64,000 nt of DNA from a phage. Below are positions 7,695 to 20,151 of the stretch, piece after piece; the first letter of the stretch is position 1; every line of letters starts with the position of its first letter. The notes beneath the pieces are model-generated. The model was given only the letters and a program-made list of their open reading frames with translations. It did no database searches and was not told where the DNA came from. The stretch lies in the sequence record OR896157.1; one strand, 5' to 3'. A program made the position numbers and the translations under genes.

Positions 7695-8002
7695 ACCTTT
7701 TCCTCTAAGAAGTCAGACAGTTTAAAATCTTTACGGTCCATCAGACCATAGTGAATGTTCTTCAGCGTATCGTACATGTCCCAGTACTTTTCTTTTAGCA
7801 TATTACCAAATGGTGGAATATAAAGCTTATCCCATTTAGCAGCTAACTCACCATTGCGCAGTTCTCCTGGAACATTTTCAACGATACGTAAAACTTTAGT
7901 TGCAACCTCATAATCGGATGGCGGAATCCATCCCCAATTATGATGTACTGAACCGTTAATTTCGCCATTCAGCGAAGTAAAAATCGTAGCTGGACAACTC
8001 AT
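7691..8002 (-). CDS. hypothetical protein
   Basis: 103-aa ORF. Confidence 0.45.
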   Translation of the reverse strand: MSCPATIFTSLNGEINGSVHHNWGWIPPSDYEVATKVLRIVENVPGELRNGELAAKWDKLYIPPFGNMLKEKYWDMYDTLKNIHYGLMDRKDFKLSDFLEEKV

Positions 8003-8361
8003 CGTGTACCTCTAATACCTTGAATAAAGTTTAAAGCATCTTCACCTGGTGGAACTTCTTTAGACTTAGATTTTCGTTTAAAGAGTTTCCACTCTTTCTT
8101 TTGGTCGAAGGTTCCACGTTGAACCTGCCCAAGATAAAATAACCACTTTCCAATCCAGTAGAATGGAGTTAAAATGCCAGCCATCCAGCCAACAAAAAGT
8201 AATTGTTCACCATACAAAGGACTAAAGAAGTACAATCCCCAATATGTTCCAAACCCATAAAGCATTGTGAACATAAAGCAAATAATTATTGTACAAACAG
8301 CCCATCCAAAATTATCATATGAACCAGCATCTTTGAATCCGCGAAATAATGTTTTAATCAT
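7999..8361 (-). CDS. hypothetical membrane protein
   Basis: two or more hydrophobic helices. Confidence 0.45.
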   Translation of the reverse strand: MIKTLFRGFKDAGSYDNFGWAVCTIIICFMFTMLYGFGTYWGLYFFSPLYGEQLLFVGWMAGILTPFYWIGKWLFYLGQVQRGTFDQKKEWKLFKRKSKSKEVPPGEDALNFIQGIRGTR

Positions 8362-17976: not shown

Positions 17977-18070
17977 GTACGGAACGCCTGGATTCGAACC
18001 AGGTTAAATTGCGATTGACGTCACAATTTATCTTATGAAGGCCATGCCTCTACCATATCCGAACGTTCCG
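17977..18070 (-). tRNA. tRNA-like element, anticodon unresolved (possible pseudo-tRNA)
   Basis: good acceptor cggaacg/cguuccg and T-arm ccugg-UUCGAAU-ccagg, but no clean anticodon stem; contains uuCAUaa and an 8-bp extra hairpin. Confidence 0.35.
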
Positions 18071-18121
18071 TCAAAAACGCTACTCGGCTTACGGCTTAGG
18101 CAATTCCTCGAACCGATAATT

Positions 18122-18898: not shown

Positions 18899-19363
18899 TT
18901 ATTTTATGAACTTATTTATGAATCGTCTAGCTTGAGTATGACTGACTCCAAGTTCATTTGCAAATTTTACTAATGCACCACGTTTTGTGAAATCAATAGA
19001 ATTATATAAATCTATTCTTAAAGCAATTTCATCTGCAGTGAATTTATGAGCATGATTTTCTGATATTTTTATTTTTGTTTCATCAGAATGATTATGTCCA
19101 GTAAAACCAGTAGATACGATTCTTCCATTTGCGCCAGCGTCTTTAGCATTTTGCGCATTAGTTGCGCAATAAATGTTATCCAAAGAATATGGTCCAACAT
19201 CTCCTTTACGACACATACAATAATTATCTGAGGCTCTACCGCGCAAATGATATTTGCCAGTAGCTTTCCACCATGATAGCCATTCATCAAATGTCAGTTT
19301 AAATTCAATACCTCTTGATTTAGCATGCACTTTTTGCATGCGATACTTTTCATAATCTTTCAT
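18899..19363 (-). CDS. homing endonuclease-like protein
   Basis: GHNHSDETKIKIS (NUMOD3-like) and C-terminal helix-turn-helix ELGVSHTQARRFINK; embedded in tRNA cluster. Confidence 0.5.
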   Translation of the reverse strand: MKDYEKYRMQKVHAKSRGIEFKLTFDEWLSWWKATGKYHLRGRASDNYCMCRKGDVGPYSLDNIYCATNAQNAKDAGANGRIVSTGFTGHNHSDETKIKISENHAHKFTADEIALRIDLYNSIDFTKRGALVKFANELGVSHTQARRFINKFIK

Positions 19364-19699: not shown

Positions 19700-19784
19700 T
19701 GGCGGGCCGTGCAGGTATCGAACCTGCCTAGTCATTTCTGACACGGATTAACAGTCCGTCGCTTACCCTCTCAGCCAACGACCC
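19700..19784 (-). tRNA. tRNA with GUU anticodon (Asn) but class-II architecture
   Basis: anticodon arm acgga-cuGUUaa-uccgu, discriminator G, 3-bp D-stem, 15-nt variable arm guca-gaaa-ugac. Confidence 0.5.
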
Positions 19785-20063: not shown

Positions 20064-20151
20064 TGGTGGGGAGTGATGGAGTCGAACCACCCGAGTCGCA
20101 ATGACAACAGATTTACAGTCTGCACCGCTACCTCTACGGAATTAACTCCCC
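20064..20151 (-). tRNA. tRNA-Tyr(GUA), class II
   Basis: 88 nt, loop cuGUAaa, discriminator A, long variable arm. Confidence 0.6.

Follow-up and report, generated by a model that had tools for sequence, protein, structure and literature searches.

A 64,000-nucleotide stretch of phage DNA (sequence record OR896157.1; 'the window' hereafter denotes this whole stretch) carries at 19700-19784, on the minus strand, a complete tRNA-Asn with the anticodon GUU that is built on a class II architecture with a long variable arm, a frame that textbooks and recent reviews limit to Leu, Ser, bacterial Tyr and Sec tRNAs (PMC7609411). We consider it, with a probability of about 0.75, to be a functional Asn tRNA that bears Asn identity on a class II, Tyr-type frame and belongs to a conserved, mainly phage-borne family. 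The region aligns at 92-98% identity with T4-like phages of the genus Karamvirus, among them Enterobacter phages KMB20, PG7 and CC31 and Cronobacter phage Pet-CM3-4.

The gene is 85 nt long including its encoded CCA (minus-strand sequence GGGUCGUUGGCUGAGAGGGUAAGCGACGGACUGUUAAUCCGUGUCAGAAAUGACUAGGCAGGUUCGAUACCUGCACGGCCCGCCA). ARAGORN called tRNA-Asn(gtt) at exactly this position, on the minus strand and with this length, and the Rfam tRNA model RF00005 matched it in full (model positions 1-71) with a score of 49.2 bits (E = 2.8e-10; gathering score 29), with an insertion of 12 nt in the variable region relative to the model. The minimum free energy structure given by RNAfold is a cloverleaf with a fifth hairpin (-32.7 kcal/mol). 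The 5' strand of the acceptor stem, GGGUCGU (19778-19784), pairs with the 3' strand ACGGCCC (19704-19710), and the acceptor/T branch has the canonical 7/5 geometry. The D arm (19761-19775) has a 3-bp stem, GCU/AGC, with G13 opposite A22, and carries G18 and G19 in its loop. The anticodon arm, ACGGA-CUGUUAA-UCCGU, spans 19743-19759, with GUU (19750-19752; reading AAC and AAU) at positions 34-36 of the CUGUUAA loop in the Rfam alignment. The long variable arm (19728-19742) consists of a 4-bp stem, GUCA/UGAC, a GAAA tetraloop and three unpaired bases, UAG, and is followed by the T arm GCAGG-UUCGAUA-CCUGC (19711-19727), the discriminator G73 (19703) and the genome-encoded CCA (19700-19702). With its 15-nt arm and 3-bp D stem the molecule departs from the class I architecture, which has a variable loop of 4-5 nt and a 4-bp D stem.

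The sequence-only reading of this DNA had listed a GUU anticodon, a 3-bp D stem, a 15-nt variable arm guca-gaaa-ugac and a discriminator G, and ARAGORN, Rfam and RNAfold bore out every one of these structural details. Two ways in which it might have gone astray were also looked at: the Rfam alignment keeps GUU, and no other triplet, at positions 34-36, and the long arm stands, not being an artefact of wrongly placed ends. A tRNA with GUU and a long variable arm at 19700-19784 is thereby confirmed as real. At the positions where the 15-48 tertiary pair is expected (19770 and 19728), G is opposite G in this tRNA and in half of the aligned family, the other members having G/C or A/U; G opposite G is an unusual combination known from E. 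coli tRNA-Cys.

The gene is widespread among phages. A BLAST search with the 85-mer against 50,697 phage genomes, in which the anticodon was not fixed by the search, matched 621 records, 546 of which cover at least 80% of the tRNA. Long-armed tRNA-Asn is carried by Karamvirus, Klebsiella Jiaodavirus, Bragavirus (SdyM_006) and Phapecoctavirus ESCO13, and among the Demerecviridae (the T5 relatives) by Epseptimavirus 1-23, Novosibvirus Stubb, Tequintavirus Bas32/IrisVonRoten and Salmonella phage 5. Related phages, whose homologous position the sequence-only reading had proposed to check, have the long-armed form across genera and at up to 100% identity: in the Klebsiella Jiaodavirus phages the 85-mer is unchanged, in flanking DNA that is only ~81% identical. 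Among the matches listed, all full-length or near-full-length ones for which a tRNA is annotated are labelled tRNA-Asn except that of PG7, which is labelled Asx. A pattern scan of uncultured viral contigs in IMG/VR, seeking an Asn anticodon arm followed 17-25 nt downstream by GGTTC, found more than 75 distinct long-armed tRNA-Asn(GUU) of 82-91 nt among the matches listed, the anticodon here being imposed by the pattern. When the viral contigs were scanned for the Karamvirus frame with the anticodon left free, eight of eight loci carried GUU, and none of these eight had the same frame with another anticodon. The family is most likely old and circulating among unrelated phage families.

Eighteen distinct family members of the same length were aligned with MAFFT, essentially without gaps, and 99.3% of the paired cells in this alignment hold a base pair. 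The covariation score was 0.749, compared with 0.181 for shuffled alignments, and 0 of 500 shuffles reached the observed value; sliding the pairing partners removed the signal. All four pairs of the variable-arm stem show double changes and are paired in 100% of cells, with variants such as GUCA/UGAC, AUCC/GGAU, GUUC/GAAC and GAGC/GCUC. The acceptor stem is likewise 100% paired with covariation in 7 of 7 pairs, and the D stem is 100% paired with covariation in two of its three. The hairpin loop of the arm is usually a GNRA tetraloop, most commonly GAAA. As defined here, the family combines GUU, G73, a 7/5 branch and a covarying variable hairpin of 3-6 bp followed by ~3 unpaired bases, and the tRNA at 19700-19784 has every one of these features.

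Such conservation leaves next to no room for the idea that the gene is a decaying or non-functional tRNA-like relic, to which we give a negligible chance. Doubtful tRNA-like elements do occur in the same cluster (for example at 17977-18071, described below), and the Tyr gene of the cluster is labelled 'pseudo' in a relative. The Asn gene, however, has five perfectly paired helices, intact G18 G19, T loop and CCA, identity of 100% across genera and strong covariation, and it is the sole tRNA-Asn that ARAGORN detects in this phage's cluster. A partial copy was seen elsewhere: Citrobacter phage Ursula (PQ589834.1, 79338-79396) retains only the 3' 59 nt of a long-armed Asn gene, 98% identical, which is annotated 'tRNA-Lys' and adjoins an HNH endonuclease gene, and which may be a truncated or chimeric tRNA gene.

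In cellular genomes the design is almost absent. The same Asn pattern, run on one genome per species for 185,579 bacterial and archaeal species, gave 61 matches, 17 of which ARAGORN called as long-armed Asn; one of the 17 (locus L186) is a class I tRNA with a tandem duplication, so that about 16 genuine cases remain in 185,579 species genomes. Eleven of the 16 are part of an array (7-36 tRNA genes in 8 kb), for instance in Micromonospora and Verrucosispora, and five are solitary. E. coli tRNA-Asn is an ordinary 76-mer with about four copies per genome. A search of 5,426 complete E. coli genomes for the window tRNA found nothing even at E = 10 (0/5,426), and we reject on this result a copied E. 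coli gene or prophage copy. In a scan of viral contigs without selection on arm length, ~12% of the matches were long-armed (10 already-known loci plus 2-3 new ones, vs 98 of class I), and in loci with at least five tRNA genes the proportion was about 14 of 51. Long-armed tRNA-Asn is, on these counts, a conserved, mainly phage-borne family that bacterial genomes almost entirely lack.

The layout of the arm was compared by parsing in the same way all distinct long tRNAs in the fetched loci (92 Asn, 67 Tyr, 99 Leu and 115 Ser). Long-armed Asn tRNAs have, as their median layout, 0-1 unpaired bases on the 5' side of the arm, a stem of 3-4 bp, a 4-nt loop and three unpaired bases on the 3' side, with G73 in 89 of the 92. 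Phage tRNA-Tyr is laid out alike (0-1 unpaired, 3 bp, 4 nt, three unpaired) and has A73 in all 67 sequences. The arm of tRNA-Leu differs, with no unpaired 5' base, 4 bp, a 4-nt loop and a single unpaired 3' base (A73 in 99 of 99), as does that of tRNA-Ser, with one unpaired 5' base, 5 bp, a 4-nt loop and one unpaired 3' base (mostly G73). The 'Tyr-like class-II body' of the sequence-only reading was therefore an accurate description of the arm. A Ser-type arm has a stem of at least 5 bp and at most one unpaired 3' base; the window tRNA has 4 bp and three unpaired bases.

The nucleotides that specify the amino acid point elsewhere than the frame. In bacteria, Asn identity resides in the three anticodon bases and G73 and can be transplanted into another tRNA; Tyr identity needs A73 and U35, Leu identity needs A73, and Ser identity depends on the long arm, G73 and G1-C72/G2-C71 while the anticodon is ignored (PMC9976931). 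The assignment to Asn from the anticodon and the discriminator G agrees with the bacterial set of GUU plus G73 given there (PMC9976931). In place of the A73 and GUA (U35, A36) of a tRNA-Tyr, the window tRNA has G73 and GUU; tRNA-Leu, too, has A73. The anticodon arm of the window tRNA shares 16 of its 17 bases with that of E. coli tRNA-Asn. The U1-A72 pair, which serves as a mark in the GatCAB route to Asn-tRNA, is present in 58 of 92 long-armed Asn tRNAs vs 50 of 65 class I Asn tRNAs in the same data. The window member itself has G1-C72 and G2-C71, which like G73 belong to the SerRS set. G1-C72 was found in 50 of 56 Tyr and 88 of 95 Ser tRNAs of the same loci, and Leu has G1-C72 or, in one third, G1-U72.

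We propose that the tRNA would be transcribed within the minus-strand tRNA cluster of the phage, carrying its own CCA, would fold into the cloverleaf with a fifth hairpin, would be charged by the host asparaginyl-tRNA synthetase (AsnRS) and would decode AAC and AAU during infection. As far as is known, AsnRS reads only G34, U35, U36 and G73, so the extra arm should be tolerable. The tyrosyl and leucyl enzymes (TyrRS and LeuRS) would be expected to reject the molecule for its G73 in place of the required A73, and TyrRS also for U36 in place of the Tyr anticodon base A36; the seryl enzyme (SerRS) would be put off by a short, Tyr-oriented arm unlike the long arm of tRNA-Ser.

Several points weigh against this proposal. 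Charging with Asn, and with it use in translation, is put forward by analogy with identity rules that were set on class I tRNAs. AsnRS is a class II synthetase, and enzymes of this class approach the tRNA from the side of the variable arm (compare the aspartyl complexes, AspRS), so that a long arm could hinder binding. With G73, G1-C72, G2-C71 and its long arm, the molecule has a partial likeness to the identity set of SerRS. Class I and class II Asn genes occur together in about a dozen loci, a hint that their roles are not fully redundant. A GenBank note (AJ604531) states, moreover, that the long-armed tRNA-Asn of Salmonella phage 5 'converts into amber suppressor' once its anticodon has been exchanged for CUA, and a note by the same group, which sequenced the T5-type tRNA regions, that the class I tRNA-Asn of T5 'does not'. 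Suppression by the phage 5 derivative implies that the frame can be charged by a synthetase that does not need the Asn anticodon; this could be SerRS, or else GlnRS or LysRS (the glutaminyl and lysyl enzymes).

The same observations feed a rival account, in which the body directs mischarging: SerRS (or TyrRS) would charge the tRNA and AAY codons would be read in part as Ser or Tyr, much as with nematode nev-tRNAs or bacterial allo-tRNAs. The tRNA combines the long arm with G73, G1-C72, G2-C71 and C11-G24, amber suppression by the CUA form of the phage 5 homologue means that some enzyme charges it without the Asn anticodon, and SerRS ignores the anticodon (PMC9976931, PMC5389517). We nevertheless judge this account quite improbable. 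The arm, with 3-4 bp and ~3 unpaired 3' bases, has the Tyr orientation, the median phage Ser arm having 5 bp and one unpaired base, and the A73 and A36 that Tyr charging needs are absent. The family keeps the full Asn set (GUU with G73, often with U1-A72), which would be pointless if the frame dictated charging, and Asn-to-Ser errors across the proteome should be counterselected in hundreds of lytic phages. As to the amber suppression, charging by GlnRS or LysRS is a common cause of it among CUA derivatives. Charging by host AsnRS stays our favoured reading.

Where the frame came from is a separate question. The sequence-only reading had pointed to a separate, normal tRNA-Tyr(GUA) at 20064-20151 and suggested that the Asn gene may be a recruited duplicate of it. 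The Tyr gene is indeed there (minus strand, A73, Rfam 39.1 bits), but it is not normal: its D region is atypical, with three extra bases (AUU) between position 9 and the D stem in the Rfam alignment, ARAGORN misses it, and in Pet-CM3-4 it is annotated 'tRNA-Pseudo-GTA'. It is 86% identical overall to the tRNA-Tyr of T5, with identical variable and T arms; the T5 tRNA-Tyr is an effective amber suppressor after a change of anticodon (T5 GenBank record). The suggested duplication is not supported. Identity between the Asn and Tyr genes of the window is 65%, where unrelated tRNA pairs of the window reach 54-61%; co-resident Tyr and long-armed Asn genes reach at most 64% in all of ~95 loci, and the Asn family is old, widespread and has GUU also where the search left the anticodon free. 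On pairwise identity in the window and in these ~95 loci we reject a recent Tyr duplicate and do not take the neighbouring Tyr gene for the parent.

Recruitment within this lineage, by which the phage would have copied its own tRNA-Tyr and changed GUA to GUU and A73 to G73, is consequently barely credible. It can appeal to the single step between GUA and GUU, to the Tyr-type arm geometry, to a variable-arm motif, UGUCA...GACU.GG, that the window Asn, the window Tyr and T5 tRNA-Tyr have in common, and to the fact that Tyr is the best match to Asn inside the window. That best match, however, barely exceeds the background, the window Tyr being far closer to T5 Tyr; no co-resident Tyr in the ~95 loci comes closer; the Asn gene is already present in Karamvirus, Jiaodavirus, Bragavirus, Demerecviridae and Phapecoctavirus; and the free-anticodon scan met no intermediate with another anticodon. 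A deep origin of long-armed Asn from a Tyr-type frame is plausible but unproven. The layout of the arm, a D stem of class II type and the single-base step from GUA to GUU all fit it, as a change from GUA to GCA would for the class II tRNA-Cys described below, and the proposal stays unproven because the sequences are too short and too diverged.

Alternatively, a class I tRNA-Asn may have gained a hairpin in its variable loop, the likeness to Tyr being convergent. The near identity of the anticodon arm with that of E. coli tRNA-Asn and the Asn-like marks at the acceptor end speak for such an independent origin, and the D arms of family members are so diverse that several origins would fit. Duplication within a variable loop does occur: in Azoarcus sp. 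L1K30 (locus L186, 114-200) an ordinary class I tRNA-Asn has an 11-nt tandem duplication in its variable loop (CCGTAGGTCAT CCGTAGGTC), which illustrates one route to a long variable region. We nonetheless find insertion unlikely. With 3 bp and G13 opposite A22, the D arm follows the class II pattern and not the 4-bp GUUC/GAAC of the host Asn, the arm geometry is close to Tyr across 92 sequences, and identity to class I Asn is only 61% overall, with no special similarity outside the anticodon arm.

The two forms of tRNA-Asn meet at one genomic position in T5-type phages. A class I tRNA-Asn of 78 nt with a diverged anticodon stem, together with an extra open reading frame (ORF), T5.069, occupies the syntenic site Cys - Asn - rna3 - Asp in T5 (T5 locus 7878-8030), and there Salmonella phage 5 (locus 1552-1709) and Bas32 (locus 1201-1283) have an 83-nt long-armed tRNA-Asn next to rna3. 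The occurrence of class I and long-armed genes at one site indicates that the two forms replace each other as the phage Asn tRNA, in what has the look of an allelic replacement within Tequintavirus.

What preserves the arm can be discussed with less assurance. A class II frame with a host-like anticodon stem-loop would be accepted by the ribosome and the synthetases, and the same would hold for the Cys, Thr(UGU), Lys(UUU), Glu and Trp versions in other phages. Perhaps the arm is a neutral legacy, it may be one frozen from a Tyr-type ancestor, tolerated as AsnRS does not read that side of the molecule and obliged, once present, to stay folded; this explanation falls somewhat short of even odds. 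More doubtful, if worth taking seriously, is protection by the arm from host tRNA-targeting defences, and a use of the arm as a handle by which a phage factor would tell phage tRNAs from host tRNAs is a long shot. Viewed together as an adaptive, phage-specific change of frame, in which nucleases or toxins (such as PARIS AriB at 40/41) could not dock or a phage factor uses the arm, the adaptive explanation has a rather small chance of being right.

The PARIS system makes the defensive variant concrete. AriB cuts host tRNA-Asn(GUU) between positions 40 and 41, and the class I tRNA-Lys, tRNA-Thr and tRNA-Asn of T5 carry substitutions at or near the AriB site, a block of cleavage having been shown for tRNA-Lys (PMC12409363). 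The window tRNA-Asn retains the host sequence at this site, U36-A-A-U-C|C41, and differs by the adjacent arm. An argument against shielding comes from the PARIS-sensitive phage Bas34, which needed T5 tRNA-Asn in trans despite having a tRNA-Asn of its own (PMC12409363); its relative Bas32 is of the long-armed type, the arm type being verified for Bas32 only. Variable arms are never mentioned in the PARIS paper (PMC12409363). If the shielding proposal were true, the change of frame would amount to a structural escape, distinct from the point mutations in the anticodon loop and stem described so far. With family members in easily handled phages (CC31, Bas32/IrisVonRoten, Salmonella phage 5) and host tRNA-Asn as a PARIS target, the notion of tRNA shape as a weapon in the arms race is directly testable.

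The window holds a second tRNA of this kind. A tRNA-Cys(GCA) of 85 nt at 14972-15056 (minus strand; ARAGORN, Rfam 48 bits, and fold) has a class II body with the variable region CGGGUAUCCCUUC, U73, which is the Cys discriminator, a host-like anticodon arm and the D arm GCUGAGUGGCCAAAGGC, which we take to be very like that of E. coli tRNA-Tyr. This tRNA-Cys has matches in only 35 phage records, most of them from Karamvirus, with EcS1 in addition, and nine further distinct long-armed Cys tRNAs with Tyr-type arm geometry were found in viral contigs. Other isotypes that are normally class I also occur with long arms in phage tRNA clusters (viral loci L008-L298, e.g. L018, L099, L131, L148, L057 and L061), among them Thr(UGU) in 10 of 73 genes, some of these from T5-like phages, and Lys(UUU), Glu(UUC), Trp, His, Gly and Ile(GAU). 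In some contigs long-armed isotypes are unusually alike, with identities of 0.70 for Asn/Cys (L056, L057) and 0.71 for Asn/Lys (L131). The tRNA-Ile(UAU) genes include forms of 91-99 nt (16 distinct long sequences among 27 genes, e.g. L022, L025, L029, L148, L199, L209 and L282), with a normal-looking D arm and a variable region of ~25 nt that contains the recurring motif (C)CAGAUUAG(G). Conversely, only 27 of 54 ARAGORN 'tRNA-Leu' calls in a less biased sample (viral loci L189-L298) were at least 81 nt long, and the long arm seems to be missing from many tRNA-Leu of phages (74-77 nt, A73).

The Asn gene sits in a minus-strand cluster of ~20 tRNA genes, where it starts 5 nt downstream of the CCA of a tRNA-Glu. 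Pfam and PHROGs scans of eight ORFs in the tRNA cluster found no synthetase or tRNA-modifying enzyme near it; the matches were gp30.3-like, families of unknown function and one weak HNH-like N-terminus. The last belongs to a 154-aa ORF at 18899-19363 (minus strand) between tRNA-Met and tRNA-Asp, which matches phrog_16521, of unknown function, and has a weakly HNH-endonuclease-like N-terminus. The stretch with this ORF is missing from most relatives, whose alignments begin at ~19370, and KMB20 alone matches throughout; the ORF may be a mobile insertion in the tRNA cluster. At 17977-18071 (minus strand) ARAGORN reports a 95-nt 'tRNA-Met(cat)', and the same place in Pet-CM3-4 is called a 96-nt 'tRNA-Phe'. 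Rfam reports no tRNA there up to E = 1; an acceptor-like stem and a good T arm (CCUGGUUCGAAUCCAGG) can be recognised, but the D and anticodon arms are unconvincing. The element may be a stable tRNA-like RNA comparable to those annotated in T5 (rna1, rna2, rna3).

The gene itself is already annotated as 'tRNA-Asn' (once as 'tRNA-Asx') in many GenBank records, and the class II frame for Asn would be the new part. No description of a long-armed tRNA-Asn was found in the openly readable literature, where the sources consulted include reviews on tRNA identity and on non-canonical tRNAs, the papers on allo-tRNA and tRNAscan-SE 2 and the PARIS paper; an older account, for example in the T5 tRNA literature, is possible. 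If the proposed function is right, AsnRS identity is apparently portable to a very different frame, and nature has made and retained a full switch of identity, of anticodon and discriminator alike, on a Tyr-type frame. Among phage tRNAs, designs are tried out that hardly ever persist in cellular genomes. For tRNA engineering, the frame might offer a scaffold that is orthogonal by nature.

The phage tRNA-Asn shares with bacterial class I tRNA-Asn (E. coli asnT/U/V/W) the GUU anticodon, the CUGUUAA loop, G73 and a nearly identical stem CGGA/UCCG, and U1-A72 is frequent across the long-armed family as in class I tRNA-Asn. It departs from the E. coli molecule, with its 5-nt variable loop and 4-bp D stem, in the 15-nt arm, the 3-bp D stem and an acceptor stem of unrelated sequence. 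Bacterial and phage tRNA-Tyr, such as that of T5, resemble it in arm geometry, the 3-bp D stem, G34 U35 and G1-C72; they differ in having the invariant A73 for G73 and A36 for U36, and sequence identity to them is at background level. Nematode nev-tRNAs also combine a long-armed frame with the anticodon of a class I amino acid. Allo-tRNAs do the same (PMC5389517), with an acceptor/T branch of 8/4 or 9/3 unlike the 7/5 of the phage tRNA-Asn. Both nev- and allo-tRNAs are charged according to their frame, with Leu, Ser or Ala, and cause recoding, whereas in the phage family the discriminator and the anticodon both match Asn, for which reason charging by anticodon would be expected. A further comparison is with the T5 tRNAs that escape PARIS AriB, which are likewise encoded by an enterobacterial phage and include a tRNA-Asn(GUU). 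Those tRNAs are of class I and carry base changes near the cut site, whereas the long-armed phage tRNA-Asn is set apart by its extra arm.

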